Source: an uncultured Erysipelotrichaceae bacterium (lineage in GTDB: Bacteria > Bacillota_I > Bacilli_A > Erysipelotrichales > Erysipelotrichaceae). Taken from it: a stretch of DNA of 5,758 nucleotides. The notes beneath the pieces were generated by a model that saw only the letters and a program-made list of their open reading frames with translations, did not search any database and was not told the DNA's origin. Where the stretch lies: positions 5,305 through 11,062 of the forward strand of contig CAYWGS010000048.1 of NCBI GenBank assembly GCA_964457525.1, given 5' to 3'. Each line of letters starts with the position of its first letter. The stretch's first letter is position 1. The position numbers and the translations under genes were made by a program. This document shows, piece by piece, positions 727-5,758 of the stretch.

Positions 727-748
727 CAAAAAAACCGCCGAAGCGGTT
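727..748 (-). terminator. Rho-independent terminator of the ATPase/HMA operon
   Basis: The minus strand reads AACCGC-TTCG-GCGGTT followed by TTTTT(T)G. This is a GC-rich stem with a UUCG tetraloop and a 7-T run (plus-strand A-run 728-734). It starts at the stop codon of the HMA gene. Confidence 0.8.
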
Positions 749-974
749 ACTTTACATTTGACTTTAATACATCATAACCAAGCTTAGTAATAGCTTGATT
801 GATCAAATCTACATTTACTTTAGATTCATCAAACTCTACTTTTACTTTACTTGAGTTAAATAATACACTCACACTATCCTTATTTATTCCATCTAACGAT
901 TTAACTGCACCTTCAATTTTAAGTGCACAAGATGGACAAGTAAGTGTATCAAGTTGTATAACCGCTTTTTGCAT
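747..974 (-). CDS. Stand-alone heavy-metal-associated (HMA) domain protein, CopZ-like metallochaperone
   Basis: The protein is 75 aa with a beta-alpha-beta-beta-alpha-beta HMA layout. Its metal-binding loop is LTCPSCALKIEGAV (CxxC), and it ends ...AITKLGYDV. An AAAGGAG RBS sits immediately after the ATPase stop codon, with a 10-nt gap between the genes. Confidence 0.9.
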   Translation of the reverse strand: MQKAVIQLDTLTCPSCALKIEGAVKSLDGINKDSVSVLFNSSKVKVEFDESKVNVDLINQAITKLGYDVLKSNVK

Positions 975-984
975 ATTTTCTCCT

Positions 985-2835
985 TTATTTAAGTTTATAT
1001 TTCAATAATCTCATACCATTCAATATTACAACTAAGATACTCGCTTCATGAACAAGCATGCCAATCGACATATTCATCCATTCACTAAAGAATACATTAA
1101 AGAGTAAGAATAGTACAACACCTAATGCGATCACAATATTCTGAATCATGTTAGATGTCGTGGCTTTCGTTAAACCTAAGGCATGAACCAAACGACTAAA
1201 ATCAGAATTCATTAAGACGACATTCGATGTTTCAATCGCGACATCCGTTCCACTTCCCATTGCTATACCAATATGGGCTAATGCGATCGATGGACTATCA
1301 TTTACACCATCTCCTACAAAGGCAACAATCTCTCCTTTATTTTTGAGTTGTTCAATGAAATGCGCTTTATCCTCTGGCAACATATTACCATGAGCTTCAG
1401 TAAGACTTAACTCATTCGCAACGAGTTCAACCGTTGTTTGATTATCTCCCGATAGTAGAATTAGATTCTTAACTCCCATTTTTTTCAAGCGATTTAAATC
1501 ATTAACGACATTAGGTCGAATCTGATCTTTTATGCCAAGCATGATTTGAAGTTCATGGTTCATTGAAACAAGTACTAAAGTATTACCTTTCTTCTCAAAT
1601 TCATGAATATCTTCTAACATACCAGAAGTTAAGTTCACATTTTCTTGTTTCATTAAGGATAGATTACCAATCGCTATCCAATCATTATTGACAAGTGCAC
1701 GAATTCCTCCACCCTTTACAACATCTGTCTTATCAACCGGATAACTTTTGCGATGTCCAACATACGTTACAACCGCTTTCGCGAGTGGATGATCTGATTC
1801 TTTTTCGACACTGAGTATTAAACTTAGAACATGTTCCAAATCAGAGGTATATGATTTTACTTCTGATACTTCTGGATTTCCAATGGTAAGTGTCCCTGTT
1901 TTATCAAAGACAATGGTATCCACACGACTGAAATCTTGAATAACTTCACTCCCCTTAAACAATACTCCATGACTTGCGCCATTTCCTATCCCAGCCACAT
2001 GTGACACTGGGACACCTATCACAAGTGCACCGGGACATCCCAATACAAGAATGGTAATTGCTAGTTCAATATTCTTTGTGATTAGCCACACAAGTATAGA
2101 TAGTAACAATACAACCGGTGTGTAATATCGTGAGAATCGATCAATGAATCGTTCCGCATCCGATTTTGAATCTTGCGCTTCTTCAACTAATTCAATAATC
2201 TTACCGAATGTTGTGTCTTCACCCACTCGATCTGCTTTGATTTGTAAGGTTCCATTTTCAAGGATAGTACCTGCATAGACAAATGAGTTTAATGATTTAT
2301 GCACAGGGAATGATTCCCCTGTAATACTTGCTTGGTTAATATAGCCTTCACCACTCATAACATTTCCATCAACAGGTACTTTTGATCCTGTTTTAACTAA
2401 CAACACATCATCCACATCTACCTCTTCAATCCCTACTTCTTCGAATTCACCATGATCCATTAATTTTAGTGCCGTTTCTGGAGCAAGACTGATTAACTCT
2501 TTAATTGCGGATCGTGTTTTATTTAATGTCCGATGTTCGAGATATGCACCGAATAAGAATAGGAATGTAACGATTGCGGACTCTTCATATTCTTGAATAA
2601 GGAAAGCCCCAAGAACTGCAATAGTCACAAGTACATCAATACTGACTACCTTTACTTTTAAGGATTGGTACGCTTGAATCGCAATGGGCAGTACTCCAAG
2701 AATGGATGCGATGATTAGAAGTATTTCGAATATAAATTCATTCTTAAATCCAAAATGACTGATGAATCCAAATGTTATTAATAAGCCACTCAACAAGGTT
2801 ATTAAGTTCTTATTTTTTAGTACTATTTTTTGCAT
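985..2835 (-). CDS. P1B-type heavy-metal-translocating P-type ATPase with no N-terminal metal-binding domain and an atypical CPG motif in the TM helix preceding the phosphorylation domain (P1B-4-like)
   Basis: The protein is 616 aa. Motifs found: TGES actuator (aa 172-175), DKTGT phosphorylation site (aa 311-315, D311) and GDGVNDSP hinge. About 8 predicted TM helices. The TM helix before the P-domain carries C267-P268-G269 (TGT CCC GGT at 2037..2029) where CPC or SPC is usual. The last TM carries HEAS (H596-E597), resembling the HEGxT signature of P1B-4 pumps. There is no ZntA-type Lys in TM7 and no DxG in TM8. The AGGAGG RBS sits close to the ATG. Confidence 0.95.
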   Translation of the reverse strand: MQKIVLKNKNLITLLSGLLITFGFISHFGFKNEFIFEILLIIASILGVLPIAIQAYQSLKVKVVSIDVLVTIAVLGAFLIQEYEESAIVTFLFLFGAYLEHRTLNKTRSAIKELISLAPETALKLMDHGEFEEVGIEEVDVDDVLLVKTGSKVPVDGNVMSGEGYINQASITGESFPVHKSLNSFVYAGTILENGTLQIKADRVGEDTTFGKIIELVEEAQDSKSDAERFIDRFSRYYTPVVLLLSILVWLITKNIELAITILVLGCPGALVIGVPVSHVAGIGNGASHGVLFKGSEVIQDFSRVDTIVFDKTGTLTIGNPEVSEVKSYTSDLEHVLSLILSVEKESDHPLAKAVVTYVGHRKSYPVDKTDVVKGGGIRALVNNDWIAIGNLSLMKQENVNLTSGMLEDIHEFEKKGNTLVLVSMNHELQIMLGIKDQIRPNVVNDLNRLKKMGVKNLILLSGDNQTTVELVANELSLTEAHGNMLPEDKAHFIEQLKNKGEIVAFVGDGVNDSPSIALAHIGIAMGSGTDVAIETSNVVLMNSDFSRLVHALGLTKATTSNMIQNIVIALGVVLFLLFNVFFSEWMNMSIGMLVHEASILVVILNGMRLLKYKLK

Positions 2836-2859
2836 AACTCCTCCTAATTTCTGTTGAAA

Positions 2860-3156
2860 TTAAGCTGTATATGCATCATCTAGCTCTTTCAACATGTTAT
2901 AAACTGCTTCAAACGTTTCACAAACATCGCCTGGAACTTCATAATTATTGGTTGTCTTACGTAATTGATTAAACTCAAAGTTTAAATCGGCTATTTCAGA
3001 TTCCTTTACTTTCTTGGATAGTAAATTAAATAAGCGACGTACTTCATGAAATTCTGGATGATGATCTCCATGAACTCGATCAACAACTGGTACATATTGG
3101 ATCAATGTTGGAAGTACTCTTTTTGCGACTTCTTTAAATTGTGTTTGATTTGACAT
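2860..3156 (-). CDS. Small RIC/YtfE/ScdA-related protein (truncated hemerythrin-like, 'mini-RIC'), 98 aa from the preferred start
   Basis: MSNQTQFKEVAKRVLPTLIQYVPVVDRVHGDHHPEFHEVRRLF...QLRKTTNNYEVPGDVCETFEAVYNMLKELDDAY. This aligns by eye with two blocks of E. coli YtfE (LPELILQATKVERVHADKP and [32 protein letters not shown]) and of S. aureus ScdA (LTPYVTKLSKVHGPNHP and [25 protein letters not shown]). The start at 3156 is preferred over the track start at 3216. It has an AGAAGGG RBS 6 nt upstream, and 3216 would lie upstream of the predicted TSS. Confidence 0.7.
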   Translation of the reverse strand: MSNQTQFKEVAKRVLPTLIQYVPVVDRVHGDHHPEFHEVRRLFNLLSKKVKESEIADLNFEFNQLRKTTNNYEVPGDVCETFEAVYNMLKELDDAYTA

Positions 3157-3190
3157 AATTACCCTTCTTTCCATAGAAGTATCTCTTCTA

Positions 3191-3240
3191 TACTTGTATT
3201 TTAGTCCTATAAACAATAAAAAACCTTGATGTACATCAAG
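3191..3240 (-). promoter_or_regulatory. FNR-dependent class II-type promoter: a perfect FNR box plus a -10 element
   Basis: A perfect 16-bp palindrome CTTGATGTACATCAAG lies at 3225..3240 and contains the consensus FNR site TTGAT-N4-ATCAA (3226..3239, centre 3232.5). A -10 hexamer TAAAAT on the minus strand lies at 3203..3198. That places the box centre 29.5 bp upstream of the first -10 base, i.e. -41.5 relative to a TSS predicted near 3191. This is the only such perfect box in the window. Confidence 0.7.
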
Positions 3241-3245
3241 ATTTT
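3218..3245 (-). terminator. Possible weak, AU-rich intrinsic terminator of the fnr-like gene, formed by the same palindrome as the FNR box
   Basis: The minus-strand RNA would read AAAAU-CUUGAU-GUAC-AUCAAG-GUUUUUUAUUG. That gives a 6-bp core stem with only 2 GC pairs, extendable through a U.G pair and A/U pairs, followed by a 6-U run. It begins 5 nt after the fnr-like stop codon. Confidence 0.4.
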
Positions 3246-3249
3246 ATAA

Positions 3250-3945
3250 TTATATTAACAACAAACCATCCACATCGATTATTTTAATCGATTTATTACT
3301 TAACTGTTTAATCAGTCCTGCATCTTCAAACTCAAGCAATTTACGACTAATCGTTTCAGGTGTTGTGCCTAGATAGGAAGCTAAATCCTTCTTACTCATT
3401 GGAAGTGTGATAACATCCGATTTACTATTATGATCCATCGATTCCACTAGAAACAATGCAATTCGTAGTTCAACTCTTTCAGTAGCACGAGTTGTTTGAG
3501 TTTCGGATTGAGCTAAACGATGGGATAATTCAGATAATATTTTCATTGAGATATTTGGATATTTTAATAATAAATTCTGTAAATCATTTCGTTTTATCAT
3601 GCATATATCCGTATCAACTAAAGCACTCGCAAAGGCATCATGTACGGACTCATTAAATAATGCAAGTTCACCCGTAAAATCACCCGGATTCAAGATTCGA
3701 AGAATTTGTTCTTTACCTGATTCTGATATACGATAGATCTTCACTCTACCCCTTCGAACAATGTATAAAGCATCCGATGCATTTCCGGTTTGATAAATAT
3801 CTTCACCCTTTTTATATGACCTAGAGTGAATTAATGCCATAACTTCATCCATCTGTTCTTCTTCTAAATGATTAAAAATAGGGACTAAAGAGATACAATA
3901 ATCATCATGATCTGTACAATGATGGCAATGTGCTTGTTCTTGCAT
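3250..3945 (-). CDS. Crp/Fnr-family transcriptional regulator, FNR-type, with a predicted Cys-ligated sensory cluster
   Basis: The protein is 231 aa. The N-terminus AHCHHCTDHDDYCISLVPIF has C7-x2-C10-x6-C17. A cNMP-like beta-roll follows (GEDIYQTGNASDALYIVRRGRVKIYRISESGKEQIL...PGDFTGE). C115 lies in DTDICMIKR, at the position corresponding to E. coli FNR C122 (SMVCEIPF). The C-terminal HTH is DLASYLGTTPETISRKL, which carries the FNR-type E--SR recognition motif that reads TTGAT. Confidence 0.9.
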   Translation of the reverse strand: MQEQAHCHHCTDHDDYCISLVPIFNHLEEEQMDEVMALIHSRSYKKGEDIYQTGNASDALYIVRRGRVKIYRISESGKEQILRILNPGDFTGELALFNESVHDAFASALVDTDICMIKRNDLQNLLLKYPNISMKILSELSHRLAQSETQTTRATERVELRIALFLVESMDHNSKSDVITLPMSKKDLASYLGTTPETISRKLLEFEDAGLIKQLSNKSIKIIDVDGLLLI

Positions 3946-3975
3946 TTTGAATCCTTTCTAACTCATTCTTTCTCA

Positions 3976-3984
3976 ATTATACCA
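3976..3984 (-). promoter_or_regulatory. Candidate extended -10 promoter element for the fnr-like gene
   Basis: The minus strand reads TGgTATAAT (3984..3976), about 30 nt upstream of the ATG at 3945. A GAAAGGA RBS lies between them. No convincing -35 is present, which is consistent with an extended -10 promoter. Confidence 0.4.
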
Positions 3985-4017
3985 AAGATTTAAAAAGTGT
4001 ATCGTTATCCACTTTGA

Positions 4018-4659
4018 TTAACAGATTTCCCCGCCTTCTAATTTAATATCTTCCTTCACTTCCATAATGGTTTGTATCGCAACTTCAAGTGCAGAAATTA
4101 TGATTTCCAACGACATCGATGGCATATTTGACTTATTTATGACTTGTTCAGGTAAGAAAGGAATATGAATAAATCCTGTTCTCATTGAAGGATATTCGGT
4201 TTTCGCAAGATGCGCCATTCCATACGCCACATGATTACAAATGAATGTACCTGCTGTATTGGATACCGATGCTGGAATACCATGTGAGTGAAGATTAGAT
4301 ACAATTGCCTTGATCGGTAATGTTAATAAATAAGCATCCGGTCCATCGAATACAATCGGTTCATCAATCGGTTGATTCCCTTCATTATCTTTAATCCGAC
4401 AATCATTAACATTTATCGCTACACGCTCAATGGTCATATCACTTCGACCACCAGCTTGACCAACACATAGCACAACCTCAGGTTTATGCTTATGTATCGC
4501 TTGAGTTAAAACATCAATCGATTTACCAATAACTGTTGGTATCTCTAATTTTATAATCTCAACCTCATTGATGGTATCTGGTAATCGTTTTACCGCTTCT
4601 ATTGAAGGATTAATTTTTTCTCCACCAAAAGGATCGAATCCACTAATAAGAATTTTCAT
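4018..4659 (-). CDS. pcp: Pyroglutamyl-peptidase I (pyrrolidone-carboxylate peptidase)
   Basis: The protein is 213 aa and is near-collinear with Bacillus Pcp: MKILISGFDPFGGEKINPS...VLCVGQAGGRSDMTIERVAIN...DNEGNQP...TAGTFICNHV (catalytic Cys)...GFIHIPFLPEQ (catalytic His). Confidence 0.95.
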   Translation of the reverse strand: MKILISGFDPFGGEKINPSIEAVKRLPDTINEVEIIKLEIPTVIGKSIDVLTQAIHKHKPEVVLCVGQAGGRSDMTIERVAINVNDCRIKDNEGNQPIDEPIVFDGPDAYLLTLPIKAIVSNLHSHGIPASVSNTAGTFICNHVAYGMAHLAKTEYPSMRTGFIHIPFLPEQVINKSNMPSMSLEIIISALEVAIQTIMEVKEDIKLEGGEIC

Positions 4660-4709
4660 AGTAACCTCACATTACTATCATTATAACGATATAAAGAGCG
4701 AATAAGCGA

Positions 4710-5564
4710 TTAATCTTCAAATTTGCGAACAAGAGATGTGAGTCGTTCAACAGTTTCAGGATCTTGATGAGAGAAGAACAAACTCTTTGCTTGATCCAGT
4801 TGAAGAATCTGATTCATTTCATCTTCATTTAACACAAAATCAAACACATCAAAGTTCTGTTTCATTCGTTCTTTATTAACGGTTTTTGGTAAAACAGATA
4901 CACCTCTTTGAATTAAATAACGTAGTGTAACTTGAGCTGAAGTTTTATTGTGTTTCTTTCCTATATTTACCAATGTTTCATCGTTAAAGAGATTATTCTT
5001 ACCTTCCGCAAAGGGTGCCCAAGCTTGTATTTGTACACCATACTTCTTCATAATTTCGTTAGCCTTGATTTGTTGGTTATATGGATGTGTTTCTACTTGA
5101 TTAACCATTGGCACAATCTCATTGAATTTGATTAAATCAATTAAACGATCCGGATAAAAATTAGAAACACCAATCGCCTTTAGTTTACCTTCTTTATACA
5201 GTTCTTCCATTGCACGATAGGTTCCATAAACATCCCCAAAAGGTTGATGAATAAGCAATAAATCAACATAATCCATTTGTAAACGTTCAAGTGATTTTAA
5301 TATTGAACCTTTTGCTTTTTCATAACCCGATTCAGAAATCCAAATTTTAGTTGTGATAAAAAATTCTTCACGAGGAATACCCGATTTTATAATCGCAGAC
5401 CCTAGTCCTCTTTCATTTCCATACCCTTGTGCTGTATCGAATAAACGATAACCCACTTCAATCGCATCTAATACAATTCTTTCAGTATCTTCCTTTGGAA
5501 TCTGAAATACCCCAAATCCCAATATTGGCATCTTAACTCCATTATTTAATGTTGTATATTCCAT
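4710..5564 (-). CDS. Aldo/keto reductase (AKR superfamily, DkgA/YvgN/YtbE-like NADPH-dependent carbonyl reductase)
   Basis: The protein is 284 aa. It shows LNNGVKMPILGFGVFQ and the AKR catalytic tetrad context: FDTAQGYGNE (Asp and Tyr), ITTKIW (Lys) and LLLIHQP (His). An AAAAGGAG RBS lies 7 nt upstream of the ATG. Confidence 0.92.
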   Translation of the reverse strand: MEYTTLNNGVKMPILGFGVFQIPKEDTERIVLDAIEVGYRLFDTAQGYGNERGLGSAIIKSGIPREEFFITTKIWISESGYEKAKGSILKSLERLQMDYVDLLLIHQPFGDVYGTYRAMEELYKEGKLKAIGVSNFYPDRLIDLIKFNEIVPMVNQVETHPYNQQIKANEIMKKYGVQIQAWAPFAEGKNNLFNDETLVNIGKKHNKTSAQVTLRYLIQRGVSVLPKTVNKERMKQNFDVFDFVLNEDEMNQILQLDQAKSLFFSHQDPETVERLTSLVRKFED

Positions 5565-5591: not shown

Positions 5592-5622
5592 ACTATACTA
5601 GCCTGTAGTAACTACAGGTCAA
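5592..5622 (-). promoter_or_regulatory. MerR-type promoter/operator driving the aldo/keto reductase
   Basis: The minus strand reads TTGACC (5622..5617), a 19-nt spacer, then TATAGT (5597..5592). A perfect inverted repeat CCTGTAGT-a-ACTACAGG (5602..5618) fills the spacer and overlaps the -35. An over-long 19-bp spacer with a dyad inside it is the classical architecture of MerR-family-activated promoters. A MerR gene is divergent from it. Confidence 0.7.
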
Positions 5623-5638
5623 GCAAAAGGAGATTATT

Positions 5639-5758
5639 ATGTATAACATGAAAGAAGTATGCGATAAAACAAATTTGAATTATGAAACATTAAGGTATTA
5701 TTGTAACCTTGGTTTAGTCCCAAATGTTAAACGAGATAAAAACAATTATCGATTATTT
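5639..5758 (+). CDS. MerR-family transcriptional regulator, N-terminal HTH part. It continues past the right edge of the window.
   Basis: My own translation is MYNMKEVCDKTNLNYETLRYYCNLGLVPNVKRDKNNYRLF. The pattern (I/V)xE(V)..xTxLxxxTLRYYxxxGL(V/I)xPxxRxxxNYRxF is the MerR N-terminal winged-HTH signature. A GGAG RBS at 5629-5632 lies 6 nt before the ATG. An alternative start exists at M4 (5648). Confidence 0.85.
   Translation, partial: MYNMKEVCDKTNLNYETLRYYCNLGLVPNVKRDKNNYRLF

Follow-up and report, generated by a model that had tools for sequence, protein, structure and literature searches.

What does the single FNR-type palindrome in this stretch of DNA control, and which protein reads it? 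The stretch, hereafter the window, is 5,758 nucleotides (nt) of contig CAYWGS010000048.1 from an uncultured Erysipelotrichaceae bacterium. On its minus strand, a gene for a CRP/FNR-family regulator is followed by the palindrome and then by three closely spaced genes, which encode a 98-amino-acid (aa) protein derived from the RIC proteins (YtfE, ScdA, DnrN), a P1B-type heavy-metal ATPase and an HMA metallochaperone. The initial annotation of the window, made from its letters and open reading frames, read these as a single regulon in which an FNR-like protein that senses O2, nitric oxide (NO) or metal governs metal efflux. Our analysis of the window and of related loci makes it probable that this four-gene module, a regulator gene plus a three-gene operon, is one representative of a conserved class II-type regulon for metal efflux and iron–sulfur (Fe-S) protection. 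The anatomy of the operon, the geometry of its promoter and the conservation of that geometry, the gene order and the family relationships of the proteins are direct results of the analysis and are described before the mechanism that we build on them.

The perfect palindrome TTGATNNNNATCAA is present exactly once in the window, at 3226–3239, against 0.03 occurrences expected from dinucleotide-preserving shuffles, of which 5 in 200 hold at least one perfect box. Matches with up to two mismatches occur at the chance rate (11 observed, 11.09 expected), which leaves the perfect site as the one informative match inside the window. The end of the box at 3226 is separated by 22 nt from the hexamer TAAAAT (3203–3198), which places the box centre 41.5 bp from a transcription start site (TSS) at approximately 3191; the geometry is computed relative to the −10 hexamer, and the TSS itself is predicted by placing the start about 7 nt past it. 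Both the uniqueness of the TTGAT-N4-ATCAA site and its class II spacing to TAAAAT, as first described, are borne out. A one-mismatch box, TTGATTAAACTCAA, lies at 2965–2978 inside the 98-aa coding region and is kept in the near-identical contigs L081–L083 but probably matches by chance.

Downstream of the box, the three genes are separated by gaps of 24 and 10 nt, with AGGAGG or AGGAG within each, and the terminator scan finds a sole minus-strand terminator-like site within the operon region, at 748–733. This agrees with the original description of three close minus-strand genes, each gap holding a ribosome-binding site, that end at a strong terminator with no earlier hairpin. Given the 10-nt gap, the ATPase and HMA genes must be expected to be co-transcribed.

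Further evidence for the function of the box comes from other genomes. The homologue set of the 98-aa protein comprises 264 proteins of about 100 aa in the protein collection; its relatives are present in 546 species-representative genomes, almost all Bacillota, and 80 of their loci were fetched. Boxes were counted in the 79 loci with enough upstream sequence, with the background density taken from the rest of the same 718 kb. In 45 of the 79, TTGA-N6-TCAA starts 60–110 nt before the start codon of the small gene, where 0.2 would be expected, and in around 15 others a variant with one mismatch occupies the same position. Of 46 boxes in the related loci, 35 stand exactly 22 nt from a TAnnnT hexamer. 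Because both the position and the 22-nt gap to the −10 are conserved across related loci, the comparison gives strong sequence-level evidence that the conserved box before the 98-aa gene is a functional CRP/FNR-type site with class II-type geometry.

The genes behind the box are conserved as a unit. The order small protein–ATPase–HMA is found in 58 of the 80 loci, with approximately 70% ATPase identity across distant taxa, and the HMA gene follows the ATPase gene in most loci; the flanking genes, around both the cassette and the stand-alone small gene, are otherwise variable. Carriers of the cassette include Desulfitobacterium sp. THU1 and Alkalibaculum bacchi, and Trichococcus has only the small gene. 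The three-gene unit proposed from the window alone is thus seen again in most of its relatives, and neither the box nor the neighbourhood shows the lack of conservation that had been named in advance as a reason to abandon the proposal. No riboswitch, such as one of the NiCo/czcD type, was found upstream of the small gene in the window or in 22 box-less loci with Rfam gathering thresholds.

A CRP/FNR gene flanks the cassette in 12 of the 80 loci, in three different arrangements and nearly always together with a box. The order of the window, regulator–small protein–ATPase–HMA, recurs with regulators 60–75% identical in five loci, four of which have a perfect box (L006, L067, L092 and L095); in the fifth, L057, the box has one mismatch and a DUF6448 gene separates the regulator gene from the small gene. 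More distant CRP/FNR genes (about 41% identity) flank the cassette in other orientations, in loci including L019, L039, L051, L055, L061 and L077. Seen from the regulator, 7 of the 9 contexts examined, window included, have a box-preceded gene within one to three genes. In Clostridium sp. JN-9 (L084; genome CP035280), the regulator gene stands between a gene for a full-length RIC, with ScdA_N and Hemerythrin domains, and a cupin gene, with a perfect TTGAT-N4-ATCAA before each (L084:4997-5809 and 7352-7783). In Neobacillus (L085), a box is followed by flavodoxin (L085:2156-2669), HMA, ATPase (CPG) and, last, the regulator. Another relative of the regulator adjoins a box-preceded flavodoxin gene (L094:5870-6429), and a fourth context reads box–HMA–DUF6448/LysM–S26 signal peptidase–regulator (L090, DUF6448 region 3091-4874).

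Two further observations widen the set of likely targets. At least six loci with a long ATPase–HMA gap (L015:5286, L016:8268, L021:8197, L034:4027, L036:7215 and L067:8216) have a second box before the HMA gene, again 22 nt from a −10, which makes the chaperone a regulon member in its own right. Genes for DUF6448 proteins, accompanied by an S26 signal peptidase gene and sometimes box-preceded, are repeatedly found beside the cassette or the regulator (L057:4669-5471, L090, L044:1680-2725 and L067:8885-9734). The DUF6448 proteins found here combine a signal peptide with a His-rich tail at the C-terminus, and the one in L057 carries HCDTMEGP just past the predicted signal peptide; they may be extracytoplasmic metal-binding members of the regulon. 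Taken together, these neighbourhoods suggest that one regulon, which combines metal-handling proteins with RIC and flavodoxin, recurs in several arrangements and that the window, with regulator and operon side by side, shows one of them.

The domains of the regulator (Pfam PF00027, 1.5e-24, and PF13545, 5.7e-18) place it in the CRP/FNR superfamily. It scores 95.9 bits against the NCBIfam Fnr model PRK11161, below the cut-off of 228, and its closest solved relative is Aliivibrio FNR (5cvr/5e44, E 2e-22). The E--SR helix from which it was first called FNR-type reads ETISR and is identical, residue for residue, to the recognition helix of Aliivibrio FNR; its Glu is invariant in a set of 91 homologues with approximately 63–91% identity. 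Covariation between the recognition helix and the box variant was uninformative, the adjacent regulators all being E/S--SR and TTGAT and TTGAC boxes both occurring. Residues C7, C10, C17 and C115 align with the FNR cluster cysteines C20, C23, C29 and C122. Among the 91 homologues, only C17 and C115 are invariant, fewer than three N-terminal cysteines are present in 43, and the stretch N-terminal to C17 differs in length from one homologue to the next and abounds in His, Cys and Asp, with a median of 4 His and up to 19. By these sequence features, the family resembles the two-Cys FLP of lactic acid bacteria more than the canonical four-Cys FNR.

The pump is a P1B-type ATPase by its score against NCBIfam TIGR01525 (554 bits, cut-off 346), its E1-E2 ATPase and HAD domains in Pfam and its DKTGT motif. 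Hydropathy gives about 8 transmembrane (TM) helices, and there is no N-terminal metal-binding domain, the Pfam search having turned up no HMA domain in the protein. TM4 reads GCPGAL, and CPG is kept in 54 cassette ATPases as well as in the Neobacillus pump, which is 47% identical. The TM4 motifs described for P1B pumps are CPC, CPH, SPC, PCP, SCA and CSC (PMC13460109). As read from the sequence, CPG fits none of the seven described subtypes, and a literature search on a CPG TM4 motif returned nothing relevant. TM6 reads VHEASI, in the context LVHEASILVV as compared with LVHEGSTLVV in sCoaT (7qbz), and the TM5-6 segment matches only sCoaT, a P1B-4 pump, among solved P1B structures. Over the full length, the best PDB matches are ZntA (4umv, P1B-2) and sCoaT, about equally. 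The P1B-2 signature residues of ZntA are CPC in TM4, Lys in TM5 and Asp in TM6; the pump has CPG for CPC and HE for AD and no Lys at the TM5 position, and so does not carry that signature. The P1B-4 label that it was first given holds for TM6, where HEAS approaches the HEGxT consensus of that subtype, as well as for the absence of an N-terminal HMA domain, and fails in TM4, where CPG stands instead of SPC.

The partner of the pump is an HMA protein (Pfam HMA, 8e-14) that scores below the cut-offs of the NCBIfam CopZ models (56.6 and 45.2 bits against 91 and 95) and lacks the Met that usually precedes CxxC in copper chaperones. An Fe(II)/Co(II)/Zn(II) assignment for the pump would be an analogy through its P1B-4-like TM6. 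Fe(II) is a P1B-4 substrate for PfeT, PmtA and FrvA, and Co, Zn, Cd and Ni are moved by P1B-4 pumps as well.

The 98-aa protein is related to RIC in descent and has lost the di-iron ligands of that family. Pfam gives no match even at E 10, Hemerythrin included, and the NCBIfam RIC model TIGR03652 gives 49.5 bits, below its cut-off of 204.7. The family profile matches ScdA in the PDB at E 7e-9, and an exhaustive profile search retrieves full-length RICs from about E 1e-12, always as two stretches. The AlphaFold2 (AF2) model has four helices (pLDDT 93), and Foldseek matches it best to ScdA and YtfE, which fill the first 12 places (top probability 1.0, TMq up to 0.80). An hhalign comparison of the family with a single full-length RIC was weak (probability 4.9); the PDB profile search, MAFFT and Foldseek were more informative. 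The RIC motifs VHGxxHPE and PxDxC...Y..L are retained. The ScdA_N domain with its DxCCxG motif is missing, as it is in some genuine RICs, for example that of N. gonorrhoeae (PMC9268430). The di-iron ligands are H84, H129, E133, H160, H204 and E208 in YtfE (PMC9268430) and H87, H132, E136, H167, H211 and E215 in ScdA (PMC12412097). In the alignment with RICs, the first ligand His is replaced by K or F, a 44-column deletion removes the His-x3-Glu pair of helix 2 and the position of the third ligand His has no His; the protein ends before the whole last helix with the final His-x3-Glu. None of the six ligands is kept. H105 of YtfE is not an iron ligand (PMC9268430, PMC12412097) and does not count as a retained one.

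With 0 of 6 ligands and no ScdA_N, the 98-aa protein cannot be assumed to work like RIC. Its earlier name, ‘mini-RIC’, is fair for its fold and sequence relatedness, and hence its descent; it is wrong for a di-iron protein. The database label ‘iron-sulfur cluster repair di-iron protein’ carried by its relatives is not justified. The family has a conserved start, MSNQ, and the invariant residues H29, H33, E35, H37, E61, D77, C79 and E80, with E83 nearly invariant. Judged by helix topology, most of the invariant residues lie at one end of the modelled bundle and might form a new metal site.

From these results we infer what binds the box, what activates it, which metal is moved and what the 98-aa protein does. 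A dimeric activator of the CRP/FNR family would bind TTGAT-N4-ATCAA, the likeliest candidate being the product of 3250-3945 with its E--SR helix; that this adjacent protein is the binder we regard as likely. From a box centred about 41.5 bp upstream of the TSS, it would recruit RNA polymerase in class II fashion, giving one transcript for the 98-aa protein, the CPG-type (P1B-4-like) ATPase and the HMA protein that would end at the terminator (748–725). The activator would be switched on through its Cys/His-rich N-terminal segment and C115, the positions that hold [4Fe-4S] in FNR. Once expressed, the operon would bring down the amount of a divalent transition metal, of the Zn/Co/Fe/Ni class, in the cytoplasm, with the HMA protein feeding or regulating the pump and the small RIC-like protein as an accessory in the cytosol that helps to handle metal or to protect Fe-S proteins. 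A divalent ion of this class is the likely substrate, and Cu(I) an improbable one.

As for what activates the regulator, an excess of metal detected at the Cys/His site is quite possible, though short of an even chance, and only slightly less so is damage of redox, O2 or NO origin to a cluster or a pair of thiols. Direct metal sensing is at least as likely as O2/NO sensing because only two cysteines are invariant, the N-termini are His-rich and the regulon members, HMA genes with their own box and secreted DUF6448 among them, handle metal. The proposal of O2/NO (or metal) sensing with which we started therefore gains on its metal side, from the His-rich N-termini and the metal-handling neighbours, and its O2/NO side is not favoured over metal. 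It may be that the operon serves, as first suggested, to dump iron released from damaged Fe-S clusters. A bolder version, which we hold to be rather unlikely, makes the regulator family a direct transition-metal sensor on an FNR scaffold, in which the N-terminus and the two invariant cysteines would bind a metal ion at the place of [4Fe-4S] and so drive dimerisation and class II activation. If that were true, anaerobic Firmicutes would have in this regulon a set of metal defences not recognised before: the new CPG-type P1B pump with its own HMA chaperone, the secreted His-rich DUF6448 protein along with a signal peptidase dedicated to it, flavodoxin, and RIC or a ligand-less RIC derivative serving the pump as a cytosolic adaptor.

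Several results weigh against the regulon as proposed. Approximately 85% of the cassette loci have no adjacent CRP/FNR gene, so that there a regulator encoded elsewhere would have to act in trans, and about 17 of the 79 loci have no recognisable box, so the cassette can be controlled otherwise. When the earlier suggestion to look for co-occurrence of the small protein, the FNR-like gene, the box and the ATPase is followed, the box (45/79) and the ATPase (58/80) accompany the small protein and the regulator gene (12/80) mostly does not. The claim of a single regulon accordingly stands on the box, its class II geometry, the conserved unit and five independent four-gene loci, and is weakened by a regulator that is adjacent in a minority only. 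The small gene stands without the pump in 22 of the 80 loci, behind the same box and once with HMA only; L085 has the pump–regulator pair without the small protein; and among 750 representative clusters there is no fusion of small protein and ATPase. The sole long match in that fusion search, P0329 (1344 aa, 12 repeats), was a spurious repeat match. As each occurs without the other and no fusion was found, the small protein is not an obligate subunit of the pump, nor are the two obligate partners. The metal cannot be read from a pump whose CPG fits no described subtype, and the cassette mixes a separate CxxC chaperone, typical of Cu(I) systems, with an HE in TM6, typical of P1B-4 pumps. Transcription, binding and transport in the module are themselves predictions.

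These points bear unequally on three other explanations. It is unlikely, though the most credible of the three, that the box is bound by another CRP/FNR paralogue acting genome-wide, an O2-sensing FNR or an NO-sensing protein of the HcpR or DNR type, with the adjacent regulator coincidental or controlling something else and the operon belonging to a general anaerobiosis or nitrosative-stress regulon. Most cassette loci do have a box and no adjacent regulator; TTGAT-N4-ATCAA and TTGAC-N4-GTCAA are common to FNR, DNR and some HcpR proteins (PMC1274295), and RIC genes are typical of NO-responsive regulons (PMC9268430). Against this paralogue stand the 12 loci in which a CRP/FNR gene flanks the cassette in three arrangements, nearly all with a box, and the 7 of 9 regulator contexts with a box-preceded gene close by. 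A tie to an NO regulon was also sought in the genes adjoining the stand-alone small gene, where hcp, nor and flavodiiron genes are absent and the neighbours are variable and unrelated; none of these genes appears in any neighbourhood viewed.

An ordinary Cd/Zn resistance pump, linked to an unrelated 98-aa protein with no part in transport through nothing more than a shared promoter, is improbable. JGI labels a 616-aa member of the cluster ‘Cd2+/Zn2+-exporting ATPase’, ZntA is the best full-length PDB match and the small protein occurs without the pump; set against these are a TM4 CPG and TM6 HEAS that differ from the P1B-2 pattern, the recurrence of the small gene-then-pump order in distant taxa, and a strain variant of the window's organism (L081) that has a separate, classical Cd/Zn-type P1B ATPase under ArsR control, with two HMA domains, which suggests that the cassette is not the main Cd/Zn pump. 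Most improbable of all is that the palindrome is mainly the terminator of the regulator gene, its match to FNR incidental, and that the three genes have an ordinary constitutive promoter. The box begins 10 nt past the regulator stop codon, the extended palindrome AAAAUCUUGAU-GUAC-AUCAAGGUUUU can fold as RNA and a U-rich run follows it (−12.8 kcal/mol over 68 nt, z −2.46), so that it could also terminate the regulator gene, a further point on the adverse side. Yet dozens of loci without a gene end upstream carry the same box at the same distance from the −10, with stems that consist of A and T alone and would not act as terminators, and the terminator scan does not call the palindrome at 3226–3239; a dual role is possible and would be compatible with the conserved class II regulon that we favour.

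Features of the four-gene module and its surroundings in the window
Feature	Position	Strand	Detail or basis
Pyroglutamyl peptidase gene	4018-4659	minus	upstream of regulator gene
Putative promoter of regulator gene, extended −10 TGgTATAAT	3976-3984	minus	inferred, read from sequence
CRP/FNR-family regulator, 231 aa	3250-3945	minus	Pfam cNMP_binding + HTH_Crp_2
FNR-type box TTGATGTACATCAA, perfect palindrome, extends to AAAATCTTGATGTACATCAAGGTTTT	3226-3239	no strand	sequence scan
−10 hexamer TAAAAT	3198-3203	minus	22 nt past box; predicted TSS ~3191
98-aa RIC-derived four-helix protein gene (‘mini-RIC’)	2860-3156	minus	ribosome-binding site GAAGGG 5′ of ATG at 3156
P1B-type heavy-metal ATPase, 616 aa	985-2835	minus	Pfam, NCBIfam TIGR01525
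HMA (CopZ-like) metallochaperone, 75 aa, motif CPSC	747-974	minus	Pfam HMA
Intrinsic terminator, AACCGCTTCGGCGGTT then TTTTTTTG	725-748 (stem 748-733, then T-run)	minus	terminator scan; ends operon

The putative promoter of the regulator gene has a poor −35 and is not listed by the consensus promoter scan. Past the terminator, on the same strand, lie a gene for a PadR-family regulator (356–658) and a chromate-transporter gene (1–344, cut by the window edge), with their own promoter-like sites at 717–657; another metal- or oxyanion-related pair thus adjoins the operon. At the other end of the window, a perfect 8-1-8 palindrome, CCTGTAGT-A-ACTACAGG (5602–5618, within the region 5592–5640), falls within the spacer of a promoter-like site of an aldo/keto reductase (AKR) gene (TTGACC 5622–5617, 16 nt, TAGTAT 5600–5595, minus strand) and directly upstream of a divergent MerR-family gene starting at 5639. 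From its sequence and position, it looks like a MerR-type operator for the AKR/MerR pair. In the strain variant (L081:5949-7285 and 13754-16476), a phage-type integrase replaces these upstream AKR/MerR genes, and downstream there is an ArsR-type regulator with a 782-aa P1B ATPase, the one with two HMA domains; what surrounds the cassette thus varies, and the variant has a second heavy-metal pump, of the classical kind.

Elsewhere, three loci (L079, L045 and L044) have no box in the approximately 220 nt examined upstream of the small gene, and in them the cassette seems to form part of another, larger operon. In L079, an open reading frame ending in a hemerythrin-type motif (...HIEKENNVLF...) stops just 5′ of the small gene, and L045 and L079 share the sequence GTCATAGGG...CATGAA. 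The cassette, with ATPases about 70% identical, is also found in non-Bacillota bins, namely metagenome-assembled genomes (MAGs) of Anaerolineaceae/Chloroflexota (L010, L059 and L069), with further cases in Bacteroidales (L012 and L041) and Smithella (L066) MAGs; either horizontal transfer or mis-binning would account for these.

The module recurs in hundreds of anaerobic Firmicutes species and is apparently unstudied; literature searches did not find the combination of a ligand-less RIC derivative with a CPG pump. It defines a testable, widespread regulon and bears on the FLP branch of FNR-like regulators, the physiological targets of which have been poorly understood since about 2000. The pump brings a P1B signature, CPG in TM4 with HEAS in TM6, that lies outside the seven described subtypes. 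The small protein, labelled by database pipelines as a di-iron Fe-S repair protein despite the loss of all its ligands, exposes a systematic misannotation that can be corrected. Knowledge of the signal and of the metal would reveal the way in which strict anaerobes link metal efflux with the protection of Fe-S proteins.

How, then, does the module compare with known systems? The closest are the flp operons of Lactococcus with their FLP-type regulators, and the parallel drawn at the outset with FlpA/FlpB of Lactococcus lactis appears reasonable. Work attributed to Gostick et al. in 1999 reportedly describes L. lactis operons orfX-orfY-flpA/flpB that link the regulator to a small metal-binding protein and a P-type ATPase. 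With that gene content, the window would share a regulator linked to an HMA protein and a P1B ATPase, and the Neobacillus locus, with its order flavodoxin–HMA–ATPase(CPG)–regulator, would share the HMA–ATPase–regulator sequence of genes, with the pump and chaperone as possible counterparts of L. lactis OrfY and OrfX. In the window, unlike in L. lactis, the regulator gene comes first, not last, and a RIC-derived gene heads the operon. The flp operons and the FLP of Lactobacillus casei likewise involve Gram-positive FNR-like regulators with FNR-type sites, and two invariant cysteines are found here, the N-terminal C17 and the central C115. By their spacing, these may be the counterparts of FLP Cys5 and Cys102. 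FLP binds DNA after forming an intramolecular disulfide, its switch consisting of an N-terminal and a central Cys (PMC7162690), and the L. lactis flp system has been tied to zinc and peroxide stress. The regulator of the window differs from FLP in having all four FNR-type cysteines. With FNR of E. coli and Aliivibrio it shares the identical ETISR helix, aligned cysteines and a consensus box in a predicted −41.5 geometry; unlike FNR, it falls below the NCBIfam Fnr cut-off, two of the four cysteines are unconserved in its orthologues, the N-terminus is variable and His-rich, and its probable targets here are metal-handling and RIC genes, not respiration genes.

The other components have their own relatives. 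PfeT, PmtA and FrvA are P1B-4 pumps, and PerR induces PfeT and PmtA. PerR-controlled Fe(II) efflux is thus a functional analogue, in that the module is proposed to export a Fenton-active or otherwise toxic divalent metal under stress; the control proposed here differs, being exerted by a CRP/FNR activator and not by PerR or a riboswitch. The pump is like the P1B-4 pumps sCoaT and CzcP/CtpD in the absence of an N-terminal HMA domain and in its similar TM6, and unlike them in having CPG rather than SPC in TM4 and a separate, dedicated HMA chaperone. P1B-4 pumps are described as moving Co, Zn, Cd and Ni (PMC13460109). The 98-aa protein shares the four-helix hemerythrin-like fold and sequence motifs of RIC, and a full-length RIC stands behind the same box beside the regulator relative in Clostridium sp. 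JN-9; unlike RIC, it has no ScdA_N, no helix-2 His-x3-Glu segment, no last helix and none of the six ligands. A structural analogue of the pairing itself is offered by P1B-5 pumps, which carry a fused hemerythrin-like domain with candidate roles in redox, O2 or iron sensing (PMC9388753). There, as in the window, a hemerythrin-related module is coupled to a P1B pump; in P1B-5 it is a fused di-iron domain on a pump with PCP, whereas here it is a separate, ligand-less gene product beside a pump with CPG.

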